From Candidatus Iainarchaeum sp. (GTDB taxonomy: Archaea; Iainarchaeota; Iainarchaeia; Iainarchaeales; CSSED10-239), in contig JAQUVR010000008.1 of NCBI GenBank assembly GCA_028693335.1, positions 1 through 11,622 on the forward strand: a stretch of 11,622 bases of DNA, read 5' to 3'. Position 1 is the stretch's first letter; every line of letters starts with the position of its first letter. The notes beneath the pieces are model-generated. The model was not told where the DNA came from, searched no databases, and worked only from the letters and a program-made list of their open reading frames with translations. The translations under genes were made by a program, and so were the position numbers. Shown piece by piece: positions 1 to 11,622 of this stretch.

Positions 1-682
1 GAACAACTCTAAAATGTGCTGGTGTTCCAAGACCACCAGATTGTAATGGATCGTGTAATACATCTCCAAGTAATGCGCCTGCTTTTGCGCCGGTTGCATC
101 AATAAATGGAACTGTCTTGGTGTTTACATTGTTGATTAATATTTTTGGAATTAATACTTTCTCTTTTTGCATCATTTGCATACTTAAAGCAGTTGCAACC
201 ATAATAAATCCTGATAAAATCAACATAGCTGCAAATACAACATCAGGAATCCAACCAAGCCTCCAAAAAATAATTGCTAAAATTAACCAAGTGGTTGGTA
301 AAATAAATCCAATGAGTCTACTAGACCCCATAGATTTTGCAGCTTCGATTTTTGCATTGTCTATGATTTTTTTACCTTCACCTGCATTTACTTCTTTTAT
401 TATTGGCGTGTGGTTATCTTCATTATTTGGATAAACTAAGATATCAGTTAATTGATTTGTTGGAAGCATTTCAGCAAGAGACGCAGCAATCATTGATTTT
501 CCAGTTCCTGGAGCACCAATAAGCATTATGTGTCTTTTTTGTTTTGCTGCTTTTTTAATAATTTTTATTGCTTCTTCTTGTCCAACAACTTGATCTATCA
601 GCATTTTAGGAACTATTATTTGGCTAGTGTCTTTAAAATCCAATTCTTTTTCAATAATTTCTTGCTCTTTATTTGTTGACAT
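1..682 (-). CDS. lonB: ATP-dependent Lon protease, archaeal membrane-bound LonB type. Only the N-terminal 227 codons are present; the gene continues past the window start.
   Basis: Not on the supplied ORF track because it is edge-truncated. My reverse-complement translation from the ATG at 682-680 reads MSTNKEQEIIEKELDFKDTSQIIVPKMLIDQVVGQEEAIKIIKKAAKQKRHIMLIGAPGTGKSMIAASLAEMLPTNQLTDILVYPNNEDNHTPIIKEV... The Walker A motif GAPGTGKS lies at nt 494-517. Two hydrophobic helices (LIGFILPTTWLILAIIFW and VVFAAMLILSGFIMVATAL) are inserted in the AAA+ module, followed by GDVLHDPLQSGGLGTPAHFRVV. This arrangement and these motifs are characteristic of archaeal LonB. Confidence 0.85.
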   Translation of the reverse strand, partial: MSTNKEQEIIEKELDFKDTSQIIVPKMLIDQVVGQEEAIKIIKKAAKQKRHIMLIGAPGTGKSMIAASLAEMLPTNQLTDILVYPNNEDNHTPIIKEVNAGEGKKIIDNAKIEAAKSMGSSRLIGFILPTTWLILAIIFWRLGWIPDVVFAAMLILSGFIMVATALSMQMMQKEKVLIPKILINNVNTKTVPFIDATGAKAGALLGDVLHDPLQSGGLGTPAHFRVV

Positions 683-770
683 AGTTTATCTTTTTTTAAA
701 AATAGTTAATATATTAATAAATATTATATATAACCATTTTATTAAAAACATATTTATTATTAAGATATTT
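683..770. promoter_or_regulatory. Divergent promoter region between lonB and rnz, with candidate archaeal TATA boxes
   Basis: The 88-nt spacer is almost pure A/T. The perfect 12-bp palindrome TTAATATATTAA at 706-717 is centred about 30 nt upstream of the lonB ATG (682, minus strand). TTTTATTAAAA at 737-747 is centred about 29 nt upstream of the rnz ATG (771). Neither gene has a Shine-Dalgarno motif, which fits leaderless or short-leader archaeal transcripts. This is positional inference only. Confidence 0.35.
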
Positions 771-1694
771 ATGTCAAACAAAATAAAACTTATATTTTTA
801 GGAACGAGCGCTAGTCTTCCAACATCAAAAAAAAATTTAACAAGTGTATTAATTAATTATCAAGGTCAAAATCATCTGTTTGATTGTCCAGAAAATGTTC
901 AACAACAAATAATGAAAAGTAAGCAAAGCATAATGAAAATAAAAAATATTTTTATAACTCATTTTCATGGTGATCATTTTTTTGGAATCTTTGGTTTGTT
1001 GTCTACAATGAATCTTAATAATAGAGAAGAAGGATTAACTATTTATTTACCAGAAAAGAACAAACAAAATTTTTTAGATATATTAAACTCAGCTCAAATT
1101 AATTGTTCTTTTAATATTACTGTTGTTGGTATTAAAAAAGAGCAAATTATTTATTCAGATAAAAATTTAAATATAGAATCTGTTAAATTAGATCACACAA
1201 TTTCAACATTTGGTTTTATTTTTAAAATAAAAGATACCTTAGGAAAATTTAATAGAGAAAAAGCATTAAAGTTAAAAATTCCAGAAGGCCCATTATTTTC
1301 AAAATTATCAGAAGGGAAATCAATAAAAATCAATGGCAAAGTAATTACTCCTAATCAAGTCATTGATACCAAATTTAAAAAAATTGGTAAAAAGATTCTG
1401 TACTTAACTGACACAAAGATTATACCAGTCAACAAAAAACTATTAGATTCAGATATTTTGATACATGAATGTACTTTTGGAAAAGAAGAAGAAAAGAAAG
1501 CAAACTTAGTAAAACACTCCACATCTGTTGGTGTTGCTGGTTTTGCAAAAAAAATAAAAGCAAAACATTTATATTTAGTTCACATCTCAAGTAGATATCA
1601 AGAAACAGATAATATATTAACTGAATCAAGTAAACTTTTTAAAAATACAATGATTCCAAAAGACCTTGATACCTTAGAAATTGATGATTATTAA
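771..1694 (+). CDS. rnz: Ribonuclease Z (tRNA 3' endonuclease, short form, metallo-beta-lactamase fold), 307 aa
   Basis: This is track ORF 627..1694, but the homologous protein begins at the internal ATG 771 (codon 49): MSNKIKLIFLGTSASLPTSKKNLTSVLINYQGQNHLFDCPENVQQQI. It carries the HxHxDH motif ITHFHGDHFFGIFGLLSTM, the exosite-arm region PEGPLFSKLSEGKSIKINGKVITPNQV, and the C-terminal LIHECTF...HSTSV...YLVHISSRY, all typical of RNase Z. The 627-770 extension overlaps the lonB start and the promoter and is AT-driven hydrophobic filler. Confidence 0.85.
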   Translation: MSNKIKLIFLGTSASLPTSKKNLTSVLINYQGQNHLFDCPENVQQQIMKSKQSIMKIKNIFITHFHGDHFFGIFGLLSTMNLNNREEGLTIYLPEKNKQNFLDILNSAQINCSFNITVVGIKKEQIIYSDKNLNIESVKLDHTISTFGFIFKIKDTLGKFNREKALKLKIPEGPLFSKLSEGKSIKINGKVITPNQVIDTKFKKIGKKILYLTDTKIIPVNKKLLDSDILIHECTFGKEEEKKANLVKHSTSVGVAGFAKKIKAKHLYLVHISSRYQETDNILTESSKLFKNTMIPKDLDTLEIDDY

Positions 1695-1708
1695 AAAAGG
1701 TGATTTTA

Positions 1709-2353
1709 ATGAGAAGACCAAGACCAATGAAAATAAAAAATAGTGGATCTAGACAACCAAGTGTTGGTGGATTTATAAAAGATAAATATGCTAAATTAAA
1801 AGACGTAATTTCTAAAAGAAAAGAAAGATCACAAGAAAGAAAAGTACAAAAAAAATTTAGTAAATTTGATAAATTAAGAGAAATTCAGACAACTCAATTA
1901 GGAAAAACAATTCAAGTCACAGAAAGAGAAAAACTAGATTCTTTGTTAAAAAAACAAGTTGCATTATCAAATGAAATTAAAAGACTAAATGAAAGAAAAA
2001 AAGATATTGCTGCAATGGAATCTGCTGGTGGCAAAGGAAGAACAAGAAAATTTACTGCAGAGGAAATGGAGTTATTAAAAAAAAGACACGCTGCTGTTTA
2101 TGAAAGAGTTGTATCAGAATCAAATAGAATCAGATTTTTAATAGAACTAAATGCTCAAGAGAAATTAGTTAGAAACCTTAGTGAGAAAGAAATCGCGATC
2201 CACACAGATATAATAAATAGTTTAATGTCAAAATATAGAAAGAAAAAAATAAATGGTTTCGAATTAAATCAAATAATGACTCAAATATCAAAAAAACTTA
2301 CAAACACTAACGATTTAGTAACTGTTTTGAAGCAAATAAAAAAAGTTTATTAG
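1709..2353 (+). CDS. Hypothetical protein, highly basic (Lys/Arg/Glu-rich) with predicted coiled coil, 214 aa
   Basis: This is track ORF 1700..2353. I prefer the ATG at 1709 because the GTG at 1700 lies inside a strong Shine-Dalgarno match AGGTGAT (1698-1704), which sits 4 nt upstream of ATG 1709. The gene starts 14 nt after the rnz stop, so it is probably co-transcribed. Sequence: MRRPRPMKIKNSGSRQPSVGGFIKDKYAKLKD...LLKKQVALSNEIKRLNERKKDIAAME..., with heptad-like charged repeats. I recognise no family. Confidence 0.6.
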   Translation: MRRPRPMKIKNSGSRQPSVGGFIKDKYAKLKDVISKRKERSQERKVQKKFSKFDKLREIQTTQLGKTIQVTEREKLDSLLKKQVALSNEIKRLNERKKDIAAMESAGGKGRTRKFTAEEMELLKKRHAAVYERVVSESNRIRFLIELNAQEKLVRNLSEKEIAIHTDIINSLMSKYRKKKINGFELNQIMTQISKKLTNTNDLVTVLKQIKKVY

Positions 2354-2357
2354 GTAT

Positions 2358-3050
2358 TTATCTATAAACAAAACATTTTCCAGGATCTAAGATTACAGGA
2401 TTTACTGAAAATCTTAGATTACTTAATTTTTCTTTAAAATTATTTATGTTAACCTTAATATCTTCAAAGGTGTTATACTGCATAGGAATAACAACTTTTG
2501 GTTTTATTTTTTTTACTGCTTGAATTGCTGATCCAATATCCATTGTGTGTCTTCCACCAATTGGTAGAAAAGCAAGATCTGCAGACAGTTTATCATGTTC
2601 GTTTGTAAGGTTAGTGTCTCCTGCAAAATAAATTTTGTGTTCTTTTGTTTTTACTAAATAACTTAATGGATAAAAAGATGTTGGGTGATGTGCTGGATGA
2701 GCAATATATTCAATATTTTGAATAGTTTTTGACTCATATTCATCCATTGAAATCAAATTATTTTCTGAAGAATTTTCTATTTTATTCAATACACTTCTGT
2801 GAGCAATAATTTTTGGCTGATATTTTTTAATAAGATAATTTGTTGCTTCAAGATCACAATTATCTTGATGTTCATGGCTAATAAGTATAAAATCTATTTT
2901 TGGAATTGTTGTTATTTTTTGAGAACAACAAATCAATCTCTTGTAATTACAAAACAAATCATTACTAAAATAAGGATCTGTTAAAATATTTTTGCCATTA
3001 ACAGATAGTATAAAAGAAGAGTGTCCCAGATATTTAACTTTTATACACAT
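2358..3050 (-). CDS. Metallo-beta-lactamase-fold metal-dependent hydrolase (small UPF0173/Lactamase_B_3-like type), 230 aa
   Basis: Track ORF. The N-terminus MCIKVKYLGHSSFILSVNGKNILTDPYFS is typical of this family. The metal motif reads ILISHEHQDNCD (HxHxDN rather than HxHxDH, nt 2859-2876). Further ligand-like positions are HPAHHP, YFAGDT and LPIGGRHTMD. The gene converges on the preceding gene with only 4 nt between the two stop codons. Confidence 0.8.
   Translation of the reverse strand: MCIKVKYLGHSSFILSVNGKNILTDPYFSNDLFCNYKRLICCSQKITTIPKIDFILISHEHQDNCDLEATNYLIKKYQPKIIAHRSVLNKIENSSENNLISMDEYESKTIQNIEYIAHPAHHPTSFYPLSYLVKTKEHKIYFAGDTNLTNEHDKLSADLAFLPIGGRHTMDIGSAIQAVKKIKPKVVIPMQYNTFEDIKVNINNFKEKLSNLRFSVNPVILDPGKCFVYR
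2385..2435 (+). terminator. Possible hairpin plus T-run terminator for the 1709-2353 gene, embedded in the 3' coding end of the opposing MBL gene
   Basis: ATCTAAGAT (2385-2393) and ATCTTAGAT (2411-2419) form a perfect 9-bp inverted repeat with a 17-nt loop. They are followed by TTTTT (2427-2431) and TTT (2433-2435). An inverted repeat of this size can arise by chance in AT-rich DNA. Confidence 0.2.
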
Positions 3051-3184
3051 AATAATATTAGAACGAAATCTTATTTAAATTAATCTTTTTTAATAAATTA
3101 GTTATTTTCTCGTTTTAGGTGTTTTTTTAAATATTTACTACTACTATATATTTATATAAATCTAAAATTGAAATAAGAAAAATA
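3051..3184. promoter_or_regulatory. Divergent promoter region between the MBL hydrolase and the 3185 operon
   Basis: The consensus-like archaeal TATA box TTTATATA at 3151-3158 is centred about 30 nt upstream of ATG 3185, and there is no Shine-Dalgarno motif. On the other strand, TTTAAATA (plus-strand 3072-3079) lies about 25 nt upstream of the MBL ATG (3050). Confidence 0.4.
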
Positions 3185-3988
3185 ATGAATAAAATTAAAA
3201 CTATTTTAATTGCAATGATGTTTTTATTTTTAATAAATGTGGTTTATTCTGCAGAAGTTAAAAACTTTAATATATCAATAGAAATCATTTCTCCAACTTC
3301 TGCAAAAATTACAGAAAATTGGATGGTAGATGCAAAAGATGATGCTGATCTGATTTCTTTTAAAGAAAAGATACTTCAAGCAAATGTTGATCTTGTCCAA
3401 TTAGAAAAAATAGATCCTGATTTAAAACCACACATATATATTAATAAATTTTCTAAATTGACTGTTCAGTTTGATGAGATTAATTTAATTGTTAAGTTAG
3501 AATATTTAACAGACGATTTAATTTTAATAAAATATTTAGATTATAAAGATCAAATAATTTGGAAATTTAATGAAAACCTATTTAGACAATTTGTAGAAAG
3601 TGGGCTTTATCATATTCCAAAAGAATCAACCGCAAAAATCATTGTGAATTCGCCATTGTTAATTGGAGATGCTCTTCCAAAAGGAATTCAAGAAAACGGA
3701 ACGATTATTTGGACAGGTATTTCTACAAATGAATTAAGATTACTTGTAATTGAAAAAAAAATACCAATAGCAACATTTAATGTGTCAGATTTTTTTAATA
3801 CGGTTTATTTAAGGGGTACATTTTATTATGCCATGATGACTATTATTTTTTTAATATTAGTTTTGTTATTGTTTAAAAAAAAAGTAAGTAAAAACATAAA
3901 ATCTTTTGTAAGAAAACATTCAATAATAAAACCAAAAAAGCAAATAAATGATATATTAGATATTGATCTTATTAATAAAAAAGACTAA
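3185..3988 (+). CDS. Hypothetical secreted or surface protein with an N-terminal signal peptide and a C-terminal transmembrane anchor, 267 aa
   Basis: Track ORF. MNKIKTILIAMMFLFLINVVYSA/EVKN looks like a signal peptide. One C-terminal hydrophobic helix, YYAMMTIIFLILVLLLF, is followed by the basic tail KKKVSKNIKSFVRKH. Three N-x-S/T sequons (NIS, NGT, NVS) lie in the predicted external part. I recognise no family. Confidence 0.65.
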   Translation: MNKIKTILIAMMFLFLINVVYSAEVKNFNISIEIISPTSAKITENWMVDAKDDADLISFKEKILQANVDLVQLEKIDPDLKPHIYINKFSKLTVQFDEINLIVKLEYLTDDLILIKYLDYKDQIIWKFNENLFRQFVESGLYHIPKESTAKIIVNSPLLIGDALPKGIQENGTIIWTGISTNELRLLVIEKKIPIATFNVSDFFNTVYLRGTFYYAMMTIIFLILVLLLFKKKVSKNIKSFVRKHSIIKPKKQINDILDIDLINKKD

Positions 3989-4000
3989 AATTGAAAATCT

Positions 4001-5497
4001 ATGGAATTGAAGTTAAATAAAATAGATGCTGCTGTCTATGAGATTATTAAAGAAAAAAAGAACATTAATCTTGATGATCTAATCATAAGTCTAAATCCAC
4101 TTAATGAAGACTCAATAAGAAGATCTTTAGAAGTTTTAAAAAGAGAAGGACTAATTGATGAAAATATAAAAGTCACAAAAAAATATTCATTAGATAAAAA
4201 TGGTCTTTTGGCATTAAAAGATGGGTTTATTGAAGAATTATTTTGTAATTATTTGGCTGATAAAAAAATATCCATATCTGATTTATCAAAAATAGAAATT
4301 CCAAAAATTGACAAATCAGAGATTTCTTTAGCACTTGGAATTTCAAAAAAAAAAAATTTAATTTCAATTGTTGATGGAATTATTTTTGTGGATCAAGATT
4401 ATTTATCAAAAATTGCTATTGAAAAAAACATTCTAGAAAAAATAAATTCTAATCAAAGTGTTTTAAAAGAAGAAATTATTGATCTTTTAAAAAGAAAGGA
4501 TTTTATTATTGAAGAAGAAGTTTTATTTAAATCATATAAATTATTAGAAATAGTTTATTATGAGACAATCCAAGACAAGGAACTTTATTTAACCCCAGAT
4601 CAATTAAAAAGTGGAGATTATAAAAATTTAGACTATAAAGAATTTGATGTTGAGGTTTTACCAAAACCAAAAGAAATTGGTAGAATTCATCCATTACGAG
4701 TTGTAATGAATCAAATAAGAGATCTTTATTTAGAAATGGGGTTTAAGGAAATGAATGGTTCTTATGTCCAAACCAGTTTTTGGAATATGGATGCAATGTT
4801 TATTTCACAAGATCATCCTGCAAGAGATTCTCAAGATACTTTTTATTTAAAAGAAAGTGGATCTTTACCATTTGATGAAAAACTATTAGAAACAATTTCA
4901 GAAATTCACAAAAATGGTGGAGACACAGGATCTATTGGTTATCAGTATGATTGGTCTGAAAAATTAGCAAGGTCTTTAGTTTTAAGAACACACACAACAG
5001 CAGTTACTTTTAAGACATTCCATAACCTTTCTTTAGAAGAAAAAGAAACAAGCAAATATTTTTCAATAGGAAAAGTTTTTAGAAACGAAACCATAGATTC
5101 AACACATTTACCAGAATTTCATCAAGCAGAAGGTTTTGTTATTGGAAAAGATTTAGGACTAGCAGATCTTTTAGGATTTATTAAAGAGTTTTTTAATAAA
5201 CTAGGGATTAAAGAAATAAAATTTAAACCAACCTATAACCCATATACAGAACCAAGTGTTGAGGCATACTGTTATTTGAAAAAAGAAAAAAAATGGGTAG
5301 AAATAATTAATGCCGGAATATTTAGACCAGAAACGGTTTTTCCATTTCAAATAAATAATACTGTTATTGCATGGGGATTAGGTGTTGAAAGATTAGCGAT
5401 GTTATTATATGGTTGCGACTCTTTAAAAGAAATCCATGGTGATGAACCAAATCTTGATTGGTTAAGAACATATGTTTTACCAAGAAGAGAGTTATAA
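4001..5497 (+). CDS. pheS: Phenylalanine--tRNA ligase alpha subunit, archaeal/eukaryotic type, 498 aa
   Basis: Track ORF. The class II motifs are present: motif 1 region HPLRVVMNQIRDLYLEMGF, motif 2 GKVFRNETIDSTHLPEFHQAEG, and motif 3 GLGVERLAMLLYG. The long N-terminal winged-helix-like extension and the ~500 aa length match the archaeal alpha subunit. Confidence 0.95.
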   Translation: MELKLNKIDAAVYEIIKEKKNINLDDLIISLNPLNEDSIRRSLEVLKREGLIDENIKVTKKYSLDKNGLLALKDGFIEELFCNYLADKKISISDLSKIEIPKIDKSEISLALGISKKKNLISIVDGIIFVDQDYLSKIAIEKNILEKINSNQSVLKEEIIDLLKRKDFIIEEEVLFKSYKLLEIVYYETIQDKELYLTPDQLKSGDYKNLDYKEFDVEVLPKPKEIGRIHPLRVVMNQIRDLYLEMGFKEMNGSYVQTSFWNMDAMFISQDHPARDSQDTFYLKESGSLPFDEKLLETISEIHKNGGDTGSIGYQYDWSEKLARSLVLRTHTTAVTFKTFHNLSLEEKETSKYFSIGKVFRNETIDSTHLPEFHQAEGFVIGKDLGLADLLGFIKEFFNKLGIKEIKFKPTYNPYTEPSVEAYCYLKKEKKWVEIINAGIFRPETVFPFQINNTVIAWGLGVERLAMLLYGCDSLKEIHGDEPNLDWLRTYVLPRREL

Positions 5498-5515
5498 TTT
5501 TAAATTAAGATAAAA

Positions 5516-7183
5516 ATGGCAATATTAGATACAACTTTAGAATATATAAATAAAGAGTTAAAAAAAGAATTAGATATAGATTCATTAGATAAAATATTAT
5601 TTGATTTTGGTTTAGAAATAGAATCTTATAATAAAACAACTGATGAATTAAAAATAGACATTACTGCTGAAAGATCAGATCTATTGTCAGAAATTGGATT
5701 TATCAGAGCATTAAAAGCATATTTGGAAATATCTTCAGTAAATGAATATAAAGCAAAATCATCAACATATGTTTTAAATATAGAAAACTCAGTAAAACCA
5801 GTAAGACCATTTAGTGTTTGTGCAGTTATAAAAAATTTAACTTTAACTGATGATAAATTAAAACAAATTATTTGGGCCCAAGAAAAACTACACCTAACAC
5901 TTGGAAGAAAAAGATCTGTTGCCGCTATTGGTATTTATCCATTAGATAAAATAAATTTCCCAATAACCTTTCTTTCAAAACAACCAAAAGAAATATCATT
6001 TATTCCATTAGGTGAAACAGAATTATTTTCTGGAAAAGATATTTTAGAAAAGAATGAAACCGGTATTGCGTATGCATCACTTTTAGAAAATAAAGAAAGA
6101 TATCCTGTTTTTGTAGACTCTCTTGGAAAAACATTATCAATGCCACCAATAATTAATTCAGAAGATACTGGAAAAGTCACAACATCAACAAAAGATGTTT
6201 TTATTGAGTGCTCTGGTTTTAATTTAGCAAGACTTAATCAAATATTAAATATTGTTTGTTGTATGTTTGCTGATTTTGGTGGAGAAATTTATCAAGTAAC
6301 AATAAATTTTGGATCAGAATATTCTGAAAAAAAAATAATTACCCCGGTATTAGAATACAGAAAAAAAATAATCCCGATAAATGAATTAAATTCATTAATT
6401 TCCACAACATTAACAATTGATGAAATTGAAAAATTATTAATAAGAATGCAGTATACAATAAAAAAAATAAACAAAGAGAAAATTGAAGTTACAATACCGC
6501 CGTTTAGATGTGATGTAATGCACACAGTTGATGTTGCTGATGATCTTGCAAGAAGTTATGGTTTTAATAATATTAATTTTAAACAACCAAATATATCTAC
6601 AATTGGTGGGTTAACAAAAGAATCATTAGTTCAAAATAACATAATTAATGTTATGACTTTATTAGGATATACAGAAATTAGTCCATTTTCTTTATCAAAT
6701 AAAAAAGAATTATTTGAAAATTTTTTAATTCCAGTAAATAAAGATGCACTAGATTTAGGATATTCAAAAGATAAAAATTTAGATGTTATTGTTACTTGGT
6801 TATATCCAAAATTATTAAAGACATTAACCAATAATCAACACAGAGGATATCCACAAAAAATATTTTCTTGTAATTATGTTGTTATTAAGGACACAGAAGA
6901 AGAAAATAGATCTAAAAATAGATTAAAATTATCTGCAATGACTGCATCATCAAAAATATCTTACACACAAACAGTTTCAGATCTTTTAACTTTGTGTAAT
7001 GTTCTTGGACAAAAATTGGATTTAGAGAAAAAAAATTATCCATTTTATTTAAAAGACAGATCTGCAGAAATAATTATTGATGGTAAATCTGTTGGGCATG
7101 TTGGAGAAATAAATCCAGACGTTTTAGTAAATAATGACTATTTTGTGCCGGTTGTTGGTTTTGAAATAGAAATCTTGTTTTAA
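5516..7183 (+). CDS. pheT: Phenylalanine--tRNA ligase beta subunit, archaeal type, 555 aa
   Basis: Track ORF starting 18 nt downstream of pheS. It has a B3/4-type region (RPFSVCAVIKNL...LHLTLGRKRSVAAIGIYPLDKI...) and a B5-type region (IPPFRCDVMHTVDVADDLARSYGFNNI). The ~555 aa length and the adjacency to pheS fit the archaeal beta subunit. Confidence 0.9.
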   Translation: MAILDTTLEYINKELKKELDIDSLDKILFDFGLEIESYNKTTDELKIDITAERSDLLSEIGFIRALKAYLEISSVNEYKAKSSTYVLNIENSVKPVRPFSVCAVIKNLTLTDDKLKQIIWAQEKLHLTLGRKRSVAAIGIYPLDKINFPITFLSKQPKEISFIPLGETELFSGKDILEKNETGIAYASLLENKERYPVFVDSLGKTLSMPPIINSEDTGKVTTSTKDVFIECSGFNLARLNQILNIVCCMFADFGGEIYQVTINFGSEYSEKKIITPVLEYRKKIIPINELNSLISTTLTIDEIEKLLIRMQYTIKKINKEKIEVTIPPFRCDVMHTVDVADDLARSYGFNNINFKQPNISTIGGLTKESLVQNNIINVMTLLGYTEISPFSLSNKKELFENFLIPVNKDALDLGYSKDKNLDVIVTWLYPKLLKTLTNNQHRGYPQKIFSCNYVVIKDTEEENRSKNRLKLSAMTASSKISYTQTVSDLLTLCNVLGQKLDLEKKNYPFYLKDRSAEIIIDGKSVGHVGEINPDVLVNNDYFVPVVGFEIEILF

Positions 7184-7204
7184 AAAATAGAAGAGATGAA
7201 ATGA

Positions 7205-8716
7205 ATGCAATCTAAATTAATAGTAGCTCCAAAAAAATTTTATATAACAACTCCGATTTATTACATAAGTGATAAGATGCATTTAGGTCATTCATACACA
7301 ACAATAGCAGCAGATATTTTTGCTAGATATTATAGAATGATTGGGTCAGATGTTTTTTACTTAACAGGAACAGACGAACATGGATTAAAGATTCAACAAT
7401 CAGCAGAAAGTAAAGGACTAACTCCAAAACAATTAGTTGATGGTCTTGCAAATGATACAAAACAGTTATGGAAATTGTTAGACATATCTTATGATGAGTT
7501 TATTAGAACCACAGACAAAAAACATGAAGAACTTATAAAAATAATTGTTCAGAAAATGTTTGATAAAGGAGATATTTACCTTGGAGAATATGAAGGCTGG
7601 TATTGTAAGGGGTGTGAAAGTTATTTTACAGAAAAAGAAATTGAAAATGGCAAATGCCCAATAGGCCACGAAGTTTTTAAAGAAAAAGAAAAGGCTTATT
7701 TTTTTAAATTAAGTAAATATCAAGAATGGTTATTACAATATATAGAAGAGCACCCAGAATTTTTACAACCACAAACAAGAAAAAATGAAATGTTGTCTTT
7801 TATAAAAAATGGCTTAGATGATCTTTGTATTTCAAGAGAGGCAGTGTCTTGGGGAGTAAAATTGCCTTTTGATGATAAATACACTGTTTATGTTTGGGTT
7901 GATGCGTTGTTTAATTATTTATCAGGGTTAGACTATTTTGAAAATAAAGAAAAATATTCTAAATATTGGCCACCTGATTTACAATTAATGGGTAAAGAAA
8001 TTTTTAGATTTCACACAATTTATTGGCCAATTTTTTTAAAATCTGTGGACTTAGAAATTCCAAAAATTGAATTTGCTCATGGATGGTGGACTGTTGAAGG
8101 TCAAAAGATGTCAAAGTCTTTTGGGAATGTTATTTATCCTGATGTATTTATTGAAGAGTACGATTTAGACACCTACAGATATTATTTATTTAGAGAAGTT
8201 TCTTTTGGAGAAGATGGATCATTTTCAATAAAGACTGTAAAAGAAAGAATAAACAATGAACTGGTTGCAACACTTGGTAATCTTTTTTCAAGAGTATTGA
8301 CTCTTGCTCAAAAAAGAGAGAAAACTTTTACTTATTTTACAGATGAATTATCAGAAAAGGTTGAAGAAAAAATTGCTGAAATACACAAGGGGTATACACA
8401 AATAAATTTATCAAAAGTTATATCAGAAATTTTTGAAATCTGTTTTCTTGCAAATAAGTATGTTCAAGATAATAAACCATGGGAGTTAATCAATACAGAT
8501 CCAGAAAAATTTGATCAAGTTATATATGTTCTTTTAGAGACTTTAAGGATTGTTGCTGTTGAATTATCACCCATAATGACTAAAAAATATAAAATTATGT
8601 TTGATCAATTAGGGTTAGATCTAGATGATAAAAATAATTATTTACTAGAATTTAGTAATATTATGGAAAATAAAAAAGTAAAAAAAGGAGAATATCTTTT
8701 TGTAAAAAAAGAATAA
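7205..8716 (+). CDS. metG: Methionine--tRNA ligase, short single-zinc-knuckle form without a C-terminal tRNA-binding domain, 503 aa
   Basis: Track ORF starting 21 nt after pheT. The HIGH motif reads KFYITTPIYYISDKMHLGHSYTTIAADIFARYYRMIGSDVFYLTGTDEHGLKIQ, and the KMSKS motif reads GQKMSKSFGNV. There is one knuckle, CKGC...CPIGH (C134, C137, C151, H155; nt 7604-7669). The protein ends shortly after the anticodon-binding helices. Confidence 0.95.
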   Translation: MQSKLIVAPKKFYITTPIYYISDKMHLGHSYTTIAADIFARYYRMIGSDVFYLTGTDEHGLKIQQSAESKGLTPKQLVDGLANDTKQLWKLLDISYDEFIRTTDKKHEELIKIIVQKMFDKGDIYLGEYEGWYCKGCESYFTEKEIENGKCPIGHEVFKEKEKAYFFKLSKYQEWLLQYIEEHPEFLQPQTRKNEMLSFIKNGLDDLCISREAVSWGVKLPFDDKYTVYVWVDALFNYLSGLDYFENKEKYSKYWPPDLQLMGKEIFRFHTIYWPIFLKSVDLEIPKIEFAHGWWTVEGQKMSKSFGNVIYPDVFIEEYDLDTYRYYLFREVSFGEDGSFSIKTVKERINNELVATLGNLFSRVLTLAQKREKTFTYFTDELSEKVEEKIAEIHKGYTQINLSKVISEIFEICFLANKYVQDNKPWELINTDPEKFDQVIYVLLETLRIVAVELSPIMTKKYKIMFDQLGLDLDDKNNYLLEFSNIMENKKVKKGEYLFVKKE

Positions 8717-8729
8717 TCTTTATTTTTTT
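8704..8729. terminator. Reciprocal oligo-T terminator candidates at the metG/aIF5A convergent junction
   Basis: The two stop codons are 3 nt apart (8716 and 8720). T7 at 8723-8729 lies 7 nt downstream of the metG stop and is at the same time the KK(R) codons of aIF5A on the other strand. A7 at 8704-8710, which is T7 on the minus strand, lies just downstream of the aIF5A stop and is the KK codons at the end of metG. Archaeal RNA polymerase terminates at oligo-T tracts. Confidence 0.35.
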
Positions 8730-9115
8730 CTAGATATTTTTATTAAAGAACCAGCTTTCATATATTCTATTTCTACGCCAGGTCCTAAATCTTCAAATTC
8801 TGCTTTATCAACTTCATATGTTTTATAATCCGCAGTGTCCATTATTTGATACTTGGTTCCAAGATCTGCAATTATCTGTGCATTTCCTTTATCTATGATA
8901 GGAACTTCTACATCTTCAGAACTTGGTTTTAATAAATTCATTTTTTGTCCAGAAAACACAGCTGTTGCTGTCATTCTTACTTTTGCTGCACCGTGTTTTC
9001 CTGGTTTTGATTTTGCGATGGTATCTATTCTACAGATAACATCATCAATTACAATAAATTGTTTTTCCTTTAATTGCCCAACTTGTGCAAATTTTATTTC
9101 AAAATCTCTTGCCAT
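8720..9115 (-). CDS. eif5a: Translation initiation factor 5A (aIF5A), 131 aa
   Basis: Track ORF. It carries the hallmark hypusine loop SKPGKHGAAKVRM, with the modified Lys at residue 40 (codon at nt 8996-8998). The N-terminal SH3-like and C-terminal OB-like segments and the ~130 aa length are typical. A GGGG(A) Shine-Dalgarno-like motif lies about 7 nt upstream of the ATG on the minus strand. Confidence 0.95.
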   Translation of the reverse strand: MARDFEIKFAQVGQLKEKQFIVIDDVICRIDTIAKSKPGKHGAAKVRMTATAVFSGQKMNLLKPSSEDVEVPIIDKGNAQIIADLGTKYQIMDTADYKTYEVDKAEFEDLGPGVEIEYMKAGSLIKISRKK

Positions 9116-9259
9116 ATTTTTTCCCCATTTCTAATTATTGTTAAGTCATATTTATTAAAATTAATTAAATAGCAACTATATTACTAAAATAAATATATAT
9201 ACATGTTTTTAAATATGTTTTGTTTAACAATTACTATATTATTTTAATAATTATATTTG

Positions 9260-9310
9260 TGGATCTGGGCCGTACTAGATCAAAATAGTTTTTGGTTATA
9301 TAAGACCAAT
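9260..9310 (+). promoter_or_regulatory. Candidate promoter (TATA box) and upstream GC-rich palindromic operator-like site for the 9333-11622 operon
   Basis: TTATATAA at 9296-9303 lies 30-37 nt upstream of ATG 9333 and is flanked by the short inverted repeat TTGGT (9292-9296) / ACCAA (9305-9309). Just upstream, GATCT (9262-9266) N10 AGATC (9277-9281) encloses GGGCCGTACT. This is the only G+C-rich island in any intergenic spacer of the window. Confidence 0.3.
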
Positions 9311-9332
9311 ATAAAAAAAGAAAATAGGAGTA

Positions 9333-9806
9333 ATGATACTTATGTTAAAAGTATTTAGAATGTTTTTCAAAGAAGATTGTCAACCAAAAGAATCCAGAAG
9401 AAACAATATTGCAGTTTTTGTTGATGGACCAAATATTTTAAGAAAAGAATTTAACATTGATCTTTCAAAAATAAAATCACAATTATTAAAAGACGGTTCA
9501 TTAAAAATTGCAAGAGTTTATTTAGATCAATATGCAACAGACAAATTAATAGAAGCAGTAGTGAATTTAGGATTTGAAACAATAATTACTGTTGGAGATG
9601 TTGATGTTGCAATGGCAGTTGATGCTACAGAGGCTTCATTTAACAAAGATATAGACACTGTTGTTTTTATTACTAGAGATTCAGATTATTTGCCAGCAAT
9701 TTTAAAAGCAAAAAAACAAGGTAAAAAAACAATTGTTTATTTAGTAGAGGAAGGCTCTGCAGTTGCTTTAAAAAATACAGTTGATAGAGTTGTGTTTATT
9801 AAATAA
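9333..9806 (+). CDS. NYN/LabA-like (PIN-related) domain protein, small archaeal TIGR00288-like type, 157 aa
   Basis: Track ORF. The conserved acidic-residue blocks of the NYN fold are present: NIAVFVDGPNILRK, ITVGDVDVAMAVDATE and TVVFITRDSDYLPAILKAKKQGKKTIVYL. An AGGAG motif at 9326-9330 is only 2 nt from ATG 9333, so ATG 9342 is an alternative start. Confidence 0.7.
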   Translation: MILMLKVFRMFFKEDCQPKESRRNNIAVFVDGPNILRKEFNIDLSKIKSQLLKDGSLKIARVYLDQYATDKLIEAVVNLGFETIITVGDVDVAMAVDATEASFNKDIDTVVFITRDSDYLPAILKAKKQGKKTIVYLVEEGSAVALKNTVDRVVFIK

Positions 9807-9820
9807 ATGTGTGTTAAACC

Positions 9821-10315
9821 ATGAATTTACCAGTAACAAATCCAATAGTCAAAAATGTTTTTTTGGAACAAATAGTTCCAGAAAAATTATTTTTAGATCT
9901 TGCAGAAAAGAAATTTACTGGTTATTTATATTTGGTTGTTGATGGGAAAAATGGTTTTGAGGAATCAATATTAATACTATCAAAAGGATCTATTATTGGA
10001 GCAATATATATAATTGAATTTTTTGAAATTGAAATGTATGGAAAAAGTGCAATAAATTTTTCAATTAACTCATATGGTCACAACCTTGGTCAATTTGATA
10101 TATTTGAGTTAACTGAAGATCAAATAAAATTAATATTATTATTTAATGATAAAATAAAATTTAATTACCCAATAAATAATAAAAAAGGAAATTTTTTTGA
10201 AAAAATAAATTATGATCAAAATTTAATAGATTCACTATTAAAAGAAAAAATGCAAAACAATCTTACTCAAAAAGATATTCTTGATGAGCATGGATTAGAT
10301 GAGTTATTAAAGTAA
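9821..10315 (+). CDS. Hypothetical protein, possible PATAN/DUF4388-like domain (perhaps the archaeal DUF2226-type family), 164 aa
   Basis: Track ORF starting 14 nt after the NYN gene. The segment LFLDLAEKKFTGYLYLVVDGKNGFEESILILSKGSIIGAIY...MYGKSAINFSINS...GQFDIFELTEDQ follows the pattern I associate with PATAN/DUF4388 domains (x-TG-x-L-x-h, then h-x-x-G-x-I-h-x-A, G-x-x-A-h, G-x-F-x-h). The assignment is by eye only. Confidence 0.45.
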   Translation: MNLPVTNPIVKNVFLEQIVPEKLFLDLAEKKFTGYLYLVVDGKNGFEESILILSKGSIIGAIYIIEFFEIEMYGKSAINFSINSYGHNLGQFDIFELTEDQIKLILLFNDKIKFNYPINNKKGNFFEKINYDQNLIDSLLKEKMQNNLTQKDILDEHGLDELLK

Positions 10316-10329
10316 AAAGGTGCAAACAA

Positions 10330-10770
10330 ATGTTTTCAGCAATATCAAAATTAGTTACAAGAATTTCTGCAAAAGTATTAAATGTAGAAGACTATAGTAG
10401 AGATAATTGTTTATCTTCATTATTAGAATATAAGCCAATATTTATTCATTCAGTTGATTTAACAGATTTTTTAATGAAATTAAGAGTTAAGCATTTAATA
10501 AATGATATCATCATTACAGATTTAGATGGTGTAATAGTTGCAAGCACTAGTAAAGATCTAAAAGAAGGATTTAAGAGTGCTGCGATGTATAACTATATTA
10601 ATTCCGAATTAAATAAATTATCTATTATTTTAATAGAATCTGATGGATGGCACATAATTTTTAAAAATCAAGAAAACATATATTTTATGAAAGCAAACGA
10701 TTCTTTATCAAGAATAGAAGTTACAACCATAATTGATGAGATCGATGGATTTCTAAAGTGTATTGTTTAA
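10330..10770 (+). CDS. Hypothetical protein, possible Roadblock/LC7 (MglB-like) fold, 146 aa
   Basis: Track ORF starting 14 nt after the previous stop, with a good Shine-Dalgarno match AGGTG (10318-10322) 7 nt upstream of the ATG. INDIIITDLDGVIVASTSKDLKEGFKSAAMYNYINSELNKL...IILIESDGWHIIFKNQENIYFMKANDSLSRIEVTTIIDEIDGFLK fits the beta-beta-alpha-beta-beta-alpha Roadblock layout, with a h-h-D-x-D/K-G-h-h-h-A signature. The assignment is by eye only. Confidence 0.45.
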   Translation: MFSAISKLVTRISAKVLNVEDYSRDNCLSSLLEYKPIFIHSVDLTDFLMKLRVKHLINDIIITDLDGVIVASTSKDLKEGFKSAAMYNYINSELNKLSIILIESDGWHIIFKNQENIYFMKANDSLSRIEVTTIIDEIDGFLKCIV

Positions 10771-10811
10771 AATTATATTTATATTATATTTATTTAAATA
10801 CGTGAAACAAA

Positions 10812-11622
10812 ATGGGCGAAGTAATAGCAGTAGTATCCGGAAAAGGTGGGGTTGGTAAAACCACGCTTACAGGAAATTTAGGAATAGCATTATCAGAATT
10901 AGGTTTTTCAGTTATATTAATTGATGCAGATCTTGCAATGGCAAATTTAAGTTTGCTTATGGGCCTAAAAACACCACCAATAACAATACATGATGTGTTG
11001 TTAGGGTCTTCAGCTGTTGAAGATGCGATTTATGATGGGCCAAAAGGTGTGAAAGTTATCCCTGCTGGATTATCTCTTTCAGTTTATACAAGAGTAGATT
11101 CTGAGAGATTGGTTACAGTTGCAAAAAGCCTAAAAAACAAATATGATTTTGTATTAATTGACTCTCCTGCTGGTATTGAAAAGAATGTTTTAGCAGCAAT
11201 GTCAGCATCTTCTCAAATACTTTTAATAACAGAACCAACAGCACCATCTGTTGCTGATGCCTTCAAAGCAAAAATTGTTGCACAAAGATTAAATCAAAGA
11301 GTAATGGGCGTTGTTATAAATAAAGTAAGTAATGCTAAGGGAGAGATATCAGAGAAAGAAATAATGAAAATGTTAGAGTTACCTTCATTTGGTAAAGTTC
11401 CTTATTCTGAAGAAATTAGAGAATCTTTTTTATTAAAAAAAATAAAACCTACATTGATACACAATCCAAATTCATCATCAGCAAATTCTTTTAGGCATAT
11501 TGCAAGAAAAGTGTCTGGTAAAGAAATAGAAATTGCGTTAGAAGAAGAAAAAAACAAAAAACCTTTATTTGCTGGTTTAGTTATGGCACTTAAAAAAATG
11601 TTTTCAAAAAATAAAAAAAAGG
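10812..11622 (+). CDS. minD: MinD/ParA-family septum-site-determining-type ATPase (archaeal MinD) with a C-terminal amphipathic helix. 270 codons are visible and there is no stop before the window end.
   Basis: Not on the supplied ORF track because it is edge-truncated. My translation from ATG 10812 reads MGEVIAVVSGKGGVGKTTLTGNLGIALSELGFSVILIDADLAMANLSLLMGL...YDFVLIDSPAGIEKNVLAAMSASSQILLITEPTAPSVADAFK...GVVINKV...KKPLFAGLVMALKKMFSKNKKK. The deviant Walker A motif with signature lysine, SGKGGVGKT, lies at nt 10839-10862. The switch blocks DADLAMANLSLLMG and DSPAGIE closely match MinD. Confidence 0.9.
   Translation, partial: MGEVIAVVSGKGGVGKTTLTGNLGIALSELGFSVILIDADLAMANLSLLMGLKTPPITIHDVLLGSSAVEDAIYDGPKGVKVIPAGLSLSVYTRVDSERLVTVAKSLKNKYDFVLIDSPAGIEKNVLAAMSASSQILLITEPTAPSVADAFKAKIVAQRLNQRVMGVVINKVSNAKGEISEKEIMKMLELPSFGKVPYSEEIRESFLLKKIKPTLIHNPNSSSANSFRHIARKVSGKEIEIALEEEKNKKPLFAGLVMALKKMFSKNKKK

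Follow-up and report, generated by a model that had tools for sequence, protein, structure and literature searches.

Linked DUF2226, Roadblock-fold and MinD genes within a conserved NYN–LSm array of DPANN archaea: candidate partners for an archaeal MinD ATPase

Organization and Conservation of the Gene Array

The stretch of DNA analyzed here, referred to as the window, comprises 11,622 nucleotides (nt) from Candidatus Iainarchaeum sp. (GenBank assembly GCA_028693335.1, contig JAQUVR010000008.1, positions 1 to 11,622 of the forward strand). Its last part harbors four open reading frames (ORFs) on the plus strand, which code, from first to last, for a NYN-domain protein, a short DUF2226 protein, a Roadblock-fold protein and an archaeal-type MinD ATPase (Table 1). 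To our knowledge, archaea possess MinD-family ATPases but neither MinC nor MinE, and we know of no partner protein identified for an archaeal MinD. A preliminary description of the window had read the four genes as a tight operon linking a membrane-targeted MinD to NYN-like, PATAN-like, and Roadblock-like proteins, and had put them forward as a so far undescribed MinD partner module. The common strand and the spacers of 14, 14, and 41 nt were found as described, and the four-gene operon was not. Unrelated neighboring genes in the window are also spaced by 3–21 nt (e.g., 21 nt from PheRS to MetRS), hence the short spacing alone is no evidence of an operon. Moreover, the co-oriented cluster continues beyond the window on the source contig, where an LSm gene follows MinD after 28 nt and a gene for a 304-amino-acid (aa) membrane protein lies 17 nt further, so that the cluster is not a four-gene unit.

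The linkage to minD, which could have been peculiar to this genome, was found to be widespread. More than 60 loci of Iainarchaeota, Micrarchaeota and their relatives share the gene order NYN–DUF2226–Roadblock–MinD–LSm; the three genes between NYN and LSm are termed the cassette in the following. Other Iainarchaeota contigs keep the order of the array with different upstream neighbors, and the upstream flank varies by locus, being aIF5A, Nre, or TatD. In Micrarchaeota, the DUF2226 protein is 20–25% identical, the middle gene is a detectable homolog of the third gene of the window, and the genes overlap by 4–11 nt, which suggests translational coupling. The loci range in G+C content from 0.22 to 0.60, and the lowest between-locus identity is 16% for the DUF2226 protein and 11% for the Roadblock protein. 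Mean identity over 50 complete arrays was 31% for DUF2226, 32% for Roadblock, and 54–60% for MinD, NYN, and LSm.

Two scans were made for the array. The scan anchored on DUF2226 (one genome per GTDB species) yielded 11 loci with NYN, MinD, and LSm in the same order in all 11, a figure obtained with the narrow alignment A5 and biased towards carriers of the QQ[ILV]EL[LF]K[IV]F motif. The scan of metagenomes anchored on NYN does not presuppose the other genes; it yielded 80 loci, 48 of which had enough downstream sequence to be judged. The full five-gene array was present in 36 of the 48, the array minus only the Roadblock gene in three, NYN followed by LSm in seven, and NYN with neither cassette nor LSm in two. 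The 32 loci that were too short mostly show the start of the same array. Not one locus of the NYN-anchored scan contained DUF2226 without MinD or MinD without DUF2226. DUF2226 and MinD have been gained, lost, and relocated together.

In a neighbor-joining tree of the NYN proteins, cassette-bearing loci lay on both sides of the midpoint root and the cassette-less loci were nested, which suggests that the three cassette genes were lost as a block. The Roadblock gene is found in about nine of ten arrays and has been lost alone at least three times, on separate branches of the NYN tree. The arrays from which it is cleanly absent (L007 at 4501–4627, L043, L044, L017, L018, L101, and L107) have DUF2226 and MinD genes that are ∼100 nt apart or overlapping.

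Pairings of DUF2226 with MinD and of DUF2226 with Roadblock each occur outside the five-gene array as well. At locus L106, the gene of a 291-aa DUF2226 protein overlaps by 1 nt the gene of a MinD with the same kind of C-terminal helix, and no NYN, LSm, or Roadblock gene is found nearby. Locus L023 (4444–7159), whose genes recur in L024, has two Roadblock-like genes (Robl_LC7 E = 6e-4 and 2.7e-4) on either side of a canonical DUF2226 gene; downstream are the genes of two small multi-pass membrane proteins, and no MinD or GTPase gene was found in 7.5 kb. L023 and L024 thus represent a second kind of DUF2226–Roadblock unit.

Characterization of the Cassette Proteins

The MinD protein matched the TIGR01969 model (minD_arch) with E = 5e-79 and 265 bits (cutoff 201.75), and the solved structure closest to it is that of A. 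fulgidus MinD-1 (1HYQ; E = 4e-57). Around 55 distinct MinD proteins of the array bear a C-terminal motif similar to that of the window protein, e.g., KKGFLSKLFSFFKKK, which is near the KKGFLKRLFGG of E. coli. The hydrophobic moment of the C-terminal helix is 0.50 vs. 0.38 for the membrane-targeting sequence (MTS) of E. coli in the same computation. The helix is, by prediction, a membrane-targeting element of the bacterial type, and its conservation is in agreement with the earlier call of a membrane-targeted MinD. No protein of the cluster or of the 16-kb locus around it (L001) matched the MinC or MinE family. Two cassette MinDs, of 393 and 425 aa (L014:5224–6405 and L016:5228–6505), carry a C-terminal extension rich in Pro, Ser, Gly, and Ala, reminiscent of Haloferax MinD4, whose C-terminal domain is reported to be unusually long.

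The Roadblock-like protein, of which a 100% identical copy is annotated in the Iainarchaeum metagenome-assembled genome GCA_030154545.1, showed no significant Pfam match. The Robl_LC7 model (PF03259) was matched by only 4 of 35 homologs (E ≥ 0.069), and profiles of the family gave weak PDB matches (E = 0.03–0.3). With the first profile, A2, these were dynein Roadblock chains only (E = 0.03); the broader 21-sequence profile A7 gave no improvement over the narrow A2 (E ∼0.1, mostly dynein Roadblock chains). Tertiary structure prediction with AlphaFold2 (AF2) showed the topology alpha-beta-beta-alpha-beta-beta-beta-alpha, with helices at residues 44–53, 77–91, and 128–145 and strands at 57–64, 69–72, 99–103, 107–113, and 116–122. 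A Foldseek search of the model against the PDB returned 55 matches at E ≤ 1e-3, and the best 50 of the 55 were all of the Roadblock superfamily, with target TM-scores of 0.47–0.71; they comprised LAMTOR, MP1, p14, dynein Roadblock/LC7, HBXIP, and other Roadblock-domain chains (archaeal, Streptomyces). The third gene is therefore assigned a predicted Roadblock/LC7 fold, with strong support from the fold only. The profile and fold checks that the preliminary description had advised for its Roadblock-like protein thus bore out that call at the level of fold.

Ahead of the core, the Roadblock-like protein has an extension of ∼40 residues, the first 18 of which form a basic amphipathic helix. The hydrophobic moment of this helix (0.70) is the highest in the protein, its net charge is +2 to +3, and it is modeled with low AF2 confidence. 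Among 51 homologs, the character of the extension is conserved, not its sequence. We infer that the extension is a candidate peptide for binding MinD or the membrane.

The window's DUF2226 protein matched the DUF2226 model (PF09987) with E = 0.006 and 16.5 bits, below the cutoff of 22, and it covers only the N-terminal part (∼28–109) of this 252-position model. An exhaustive profile search with the family of the gene collected 147 related clusters among 1.84 billion (1.84e9) representatives, and at least four further useful proteins came from a third homology search (alignment A3). PF09987 was matched by 78 of 80 members of the wider family (best E = 1.4e-18) and by 8 of 22 close homologs, and going by these sequence matches the second gene clearly belongs to DUF2226. 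The N-terminus of the DUF2226 proteins, MN[ILV]P, is invariant.

The preliminary description had called this protein PATAN-like, of which an indirect link stood and a direct one did not. The window protein had no direct match to DUF4388/PATAN (PF14332), and 7 of the 80 family members matched that model weakly (best E = 0.0033). The multi-repeat members P0235 and P0252 matched both DUF2226 (E = 1e-13) and DUF4388 (35.8 and 31 bits; cutoff 25), and P0235 was reached by the window-family profile at E = 6e-6 among 1.84e9 proteins, with an hhalign probability of 73%. It is reasonable to regard the second gene product as PATAN-like, by transitive homology only. Foldseek found no PDB fold match for its AF2 model (pLDDT 83) at E ≤ 1e-3, and searches of the PDB with family sequence profiles likewise gave nothing. 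In the typical PATAN architecture, reportedly set out by Makarova and co-workers in 2006, the domain is fused to or associated with domains of the REC, HTH, or Roadblock type; here and in L023, the association is with a Roadblock-fold gene, without a REC or HTH domain. A 416-aa protein with three tandem DUF2226/PATAN-like domains, both Pfam models scoring above threshold, is encoded apart from MinD and Roadblock genes at L022:5001–6251.

Long versions of DUF2226 (200–330 aa; P0190, P0175, P0194, P0233, and P0209) carry a Pro-rich low-complexity linker and a conserved basic amphipathic end helix, AEKLKKLLLKEK, and the 164-aa protein of the window has neither the linker nor the AEKLKKLLLKEK helix. 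The C-terminal helix of the long versions could be a second membrane-binding or MinD-binding element.

The NYN Protein and the TatD–NYN–LSm Block

The first gene was confirmed as coding for a NYN protein, with matches to PF01936 (E = 1.1e-25, 91.3 bits; cutoff 24.2) and TIGR00288 (180.2 bits; cutoff 178.45). The catalytic Asp residues are intact: D28, D86, D88, D113, and D115, in the VDGPN, DVDV, and RD-D motifs, were invariant in 17 homologs. The start codon is more likely ATG 9342 than ATG 9333, as gene callers choose the former and the N-termini of the homologs align there.

Where the cassette is absent, the NYN gene directly adjoins the LSm gene, and the typical context of the cassette-less loci is aIF5A (minus strand), TatD, NYN, and LSm. 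Since NYN pairs with LSm in lineages that have none of the other three genes, NYN is a neighbor of the cassette and not a partner of MinD, as which it had initially been taken. The existence of NYN–LSm loci without the cassette, together with the fact that DUF2226 and MinD are never apart in these loci, indicates that the cassette is embedded in an older block: NYN and LSm, with TatD upstream, are an RNA-metabolism block in which the cassette resides and with which it probably shares a transcript. A conserved TatD–NYN–LSm block is thereby shown in the DPANN archaea examined.

The wider arrangement of aIF5A (minus strand), TatD-like hydrolase, NYN, (cassette), and LSm recurs across lineages (L090, L092, L094, L097, L104, and L107, and L008–L010 of Micrarchaeota), with overlapping TatD and NYN genes in some of the loci. 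This recurrence suggests that the block is an operon in its own right, related to RNA or translation.

Features of the Window

The coordinates of the genes and sequence elements are collected in Table 1. The G+C content of the window is 26%, and archaeal housekeeping genes (RNase Z, PheRS alpha, PheRS beta, MetRS, and aIF5A) fill it densely; no tRNA genes and no credible Rfam matches were found in it.

Table 1. Positions of the genes and sequence elements of the array in the window
Feature	Position	Strand	Remarks
aIF5A gene	8720–9115	−	upstream neighbor of the NYN gene
Spacer between aIF5A and NYN genes	9116–9332	divergent	217 nt; TATA-like octamers (9295–9302 and others); AGGAG at 9326–9330
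TATA-like octamer	9295–9302		31–38 nt ahead of ATG 9333
NYN-domain protein, TIGR00288 family	9333–9806	+	likelier start 9342
DUF2226 short member, 164 aa	9821–10315	+	predicted PATAN-like alpha/beta domain, then short helices
Shine–Dalgarno-like AGGTG	10318–10322	+	7 nt 5′ of the ATG of the Roadblock-like gene; read from sequence
Roadblock/LC7-fold protein, 146 aa	10330–10770	+	predicted fold (AF2 topology and Foldseek); accessory cassette member
N-terminal extension of the Roadblock-like protein	10330–10389	+	basic amphipathic helix FSAISKLVTRISAKVLN, then acidic patch
Roadblock–MinD spacer, 41 nt	10771–10811	+	90% A+T; exact TTTAAATA (archaeal TATA consensus) at 10793–10800
Archaeal-type MinD ATPase, 271 aa in full	10812–11622	+	ORF runs beyond 11622; window stops one codon ahead of stop
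Deviant Walker A, GKGGVGKT, signature lysine K11	10839–10862	+	from translation; S-GKGGVGKT = residues 9–17
C-terminal amphipathic basic helix PLFAGLVMALKKMFSKNKKK	11562–11621	+	MTS-like; similar motif in orthologs
LSm gene and gene of 304-aa protein (N-terminal transmembrane helix, no Pfam match)	L001:9327–10492		just beyond window end

The spacer upstream of the NYN gene is, as had been pointed out, the longest between clear genes of the window, the runner-up being 134 nt. The TATA box noted in it fared less well: an octamer is present at the position given in Table 1, and such octamers (≤1 mismatch) occur at 7.7 per kb of the window. As TATA-like motifs are common in DNA of 26% G+C, this one is not beyond chance. 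The spacer, otherwise of 19% G+C, also contains a G+C-rich near-palindrome, GGATCTGGGCCGTACTAGATC, at ∼9261–9283. It was rejected as a regulatory site: three of the four single-nucleotide polymorphisms between near-identical strains (over 246 nt) fall inside it, one of them breaking the stem, and it is probably not a conserved element.

Within the cluster, the strong Shine–Dalgarno site reported for an internal gene is that of the third gene. The statement that no T run or TATA motif breaks the cluster did not hold, as five runs of at least six T lie within its coding sequences and the Roadblock–MinD spacer has an exact TATA match, one of seven matches to TTTAWATA on the plus strand of the window. 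TTTAAATA at 10793–10800 is 19 nt 5′ of the minD start, too near to serve that ATG, and a second TATA-like octamer, at 10778, is suitably spaced for a minD transcript that is nearly leaderless. The spacer may hold a weak internal promoter; as the same junction is an overlap of 8–11 nt in Micrarchaeota, such a promoter is not a conserved feature.

Downstream of MinD, the position of LSm is kept in every complete array. The 304-aa membrane protein is kept only in Iainarchaeota-type loci (common motif ∼KYPEYK...LLLPxAKYY), and unrelated genes replace it in Micrarchaeota. Elsewhere in the window, positions 1–780 contain ambiguous ORFs only, and the start of RNase Z is uncertain. A Lys/Glu-rich protein of 217 aa, probably a coiled coil, is encoded at 1700–2353, and the 267-aa protein encoded at 3185–3988 has a signal-like N-terminus and, at its C-terminus, a transmembrane helix; neither had a Pfam match in the gene table of the source contig.

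Proposed Role of the Cassette and Alternative Explanations

We consider it somewhat probable, on balance, that DUF2226, (Roadblock), and MinD constitute a three-gene functional cassette within the array and that the small proteins act as localizer and activator of MinD. From the linkage and the sequence features taken together, we propose the two small proteins for these roles, and they are the best current candidates for the missing archaeal MinD regulators. What stands of the partner module in the preliminary description is hence the unit DUF2226–(Roadblock)–MinD, and its composition of four genes including NYN is given up.

In the proposed mechanism, MinD would bind the membrane as an ATP dimer and cycle there, and the DUF2226 protein would be its obligate partner, an adaptor or localizer. 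The Roadblock-like protein, presumably dimeric by analogy with other Roadblock proteins, would present two N-terminal basic amphipathic peptides. The paired peptides might modulate the ATPase cycle of MinD or its residence at the membrane, like the N-terminal peptides of MinE, ParB, PomX, and McdB; in MinE, the N-terminus combines the functions of partner peptide and membrane anchor. The pair of small proteins would stand in for the absent MinC and MinE. The step assigned to the Roadblock peptides follows a general rule, by which ParA/MinD ATPases engage an N-terminal aliphatic and basic peptide of a dimeric partner and contact the membrane through an amphipathic helix at their C-terminus (PMC11407121; PMC12462528). 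An ATPase-stimulating partner is a general requirement of ParA/MinD positioning systems (PMC11407121; bioRxiv 10.1101/2020.04.03.021790). The division ring, pili, or another envelope structure would be candidate cargo; no pilus or division genes were found in the 16 kb around the cluster. A stricter version is possible and rather doubtful at present, namely, a MinE-independent Min system in DPANN archaea in which the Roadblock dimer would be the analog of MinE (ATPase activator and membrane-release factor) and DUF2226 an obligate adaptor between MinD and its cargo.

Over ten pairs of families, the distance correlation was highest for Roadblock–MinD (raw 0.94; partial 0.59 with the other three families regressed out), and the partial values for MinD–NYN (0.12) and MinD–LSm (0.09) fell in the lowest tier; these correlations are confounded by shared phylogeny, carry no significance estimate, and are suggestive only. 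This limit is one of several points that weigh against the proposed cassette function. The repeated loss of Roadblock means that it cannot be essential for MinD function, and its N-terminal helix could equally be a membrane anchor. The pairing of DUF2226 with MinD in an independent context is a single locus (L106), and DUF2226 occurs without MinD in L023, flanked by Roadblock genes, and in L022, alone. MetRS and aIF5A are found near the array in both phyla, so that the wider region is partly syntenic and some of the conservation may be inherited gene order; taxonomy was assigned for a minority of the loci only.

Two other explanations of the array were weighed, both of which we regard as improbable. 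According to one, all five genes make up a single RNA-metabolism unit in which the membrane-bound MinD and its two small partners would position or scaffold the NYN nuclease and the RNA chaperone LSm at the membrane, in the manner of a membrane-anchored degradosome. In its favor, the cassette is flanked directly by NYN on one side and LSm on the other in every locus examined except one, and TatD is usually found just upstream. The spacing of the cassette from NYN and LSm is no wider than that between its own genes, overlaps of 4 nt with LSm included, and the catalytic aspartates of NYN are intact. However, NYN and LSm are adjacent in at least seven lineages without the cassette, so that their function does not need MinD, and DUF2226–MinD exists without NYN or LSm in L106. 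It is these two observations that disfavor the RNA-metabolism unit, with which the low partial correlations of MinD with NYN and LSm are also at odds.

According to the other, the array reflects inherited gene order only, MinD acting independently while the Roadblock and PATAN-like proteins regulate a distant Ras-like GTPase, as MglB does MglA. The classical associations of Roadblock and PATAN domains are with small GTPases and response regulators (Makarova et al., 2006, as cited in PMC11580455). The L023 locus, with a DUF2226 gene flanked by two Roadblock-like genes and no MinD, would fit, and in so compact a genome all genes are tightly packed whatever their function. Yet the 16 kb surrounding the cluster contain no GTPase gene, and Roadblock–MinD shows the strongest distance co-variation. 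This explanation is disfavored by the block-wise loss of the three genes, by the DUF2226–MinD pair, never separated across loci that have diverged to less than 20% identity, and by the independent DUF2226–MinD pair in L106.

The idea of an anti-phage defense or mobile cassette was rejected as very improbable after a PADLOC scan: a NYN nuclease with a P-loop ATPase is a combination that recurs in defense islands, and weak PADLOC matches were obtained (NYN, E = 3e-5; MinD vs. PDC-M28B, E = 2e-6), but these cover generic motifs only, the two small proteins match nothing, the locus is a fixed housekeeping one (aIF5A, tRNA synthetases, LSm, and enolase) whose array appears vertically inherited, and no integrase, repeats, or tRNA were found near the array.

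Comparison With Known Systems

The searches for literature on DUF2226, or on a MinD–Roadblock–PATAN unit (including PF09987 and arCOG00589), found no description of either, in agreement with the view that the module is undescribed. The component families and the logic of MinD with adjacent partner genes are already known; the unit of MinD, DUF2226, and Roadblock is new to the literature searched. It provides a first functional context for DUF2226 and names two concrete candidate partners of MinD that are conserved across deep DPANN lineages, which makes the question testable with recombinant proteins. If the proposal is true, these would be the first partner proteins to be identified for any archaeal MinD, and if the interaction is confirmed, the reach of the Roadblock/PATAN "GTPase platform" domains would be widened to SIMIBI-class ParA/MinD ATPases.

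In common with bacterial MinCDE, the cassette has a MinD whose Walker A motif is deviant and whose predicted membrane-targeting helix at the C-terminus is amphipathic and of almost identical sequence type (KKGFLxxLF), partner genes beside minD, and a small, presumably dimeric partner with an N-terminal amphipathic basic segment like that of MinE. It differs in the lack of MinC and MinE homologs, its partners being of Roadblock and PATAN-like folds unrelated to MinE.

Among archaea, the nearest comparison is with MinD4 and MinD2 of Haloferax volcanii, which are likewise archaeal MinD-family ATPases; long C-terminal extensions are a further likeness for some cassette MinDs (L014 and L016). The patterning of H. 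volcanii MinD4 depends on its bona fide C-terminal MTS, and the structures that this protein positions are archaella and chemosensory arrays rather than FtsZ (bioRxiv 10.1101/2020.04.03.021790; PMC11588486). In contrast to the cassette, no partner proteins are known for the Haloferax MinDs, and their reported gene neighbors are che and fla rather than DUF2226 or Roadblock genes. Genes of FleN/MinD (arCOG00589) and Roadblock (arCOG02603) each recur near archaeal type IV pilus genes (Makarova et al., 2016, PMC4858521); that survey describes no MinD–Roadblock–DUF2226 unit, and no pilus genes accompany the cluster within 16 kb.

With MglA–MglB of Myxococcus and Thermus and the associated PATAN-domain proteins, the cassette would share Roadblock- and PATAN-type accessory factors of a P-loop NTPase for spatial organization. 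Its NTPase, however, is a MinD ATPase of the SIMIBI class and not a Ras-like GTPase, no small GTPase being encoded in the window or in the 16-kb locus L001; its Roadblock protein has an N-terminal peptide extension, and its PATAN-like protein lacks REC and HTH domains.

In structure, the Roadblock-like protein matches best with Ragulator (LAMTOR), which serves the Rag GTPases. Ragulator–Rag is a eukaryotic lysosomal system, anchored via the lipidated LAMTOR1, and the Rag GTPases carry Roadblock domains themselves, in all of which it differs from the cassette. The likeness would be that Roadblock dimers serve as a membrane-anchored platform for a dimeric NTPase.

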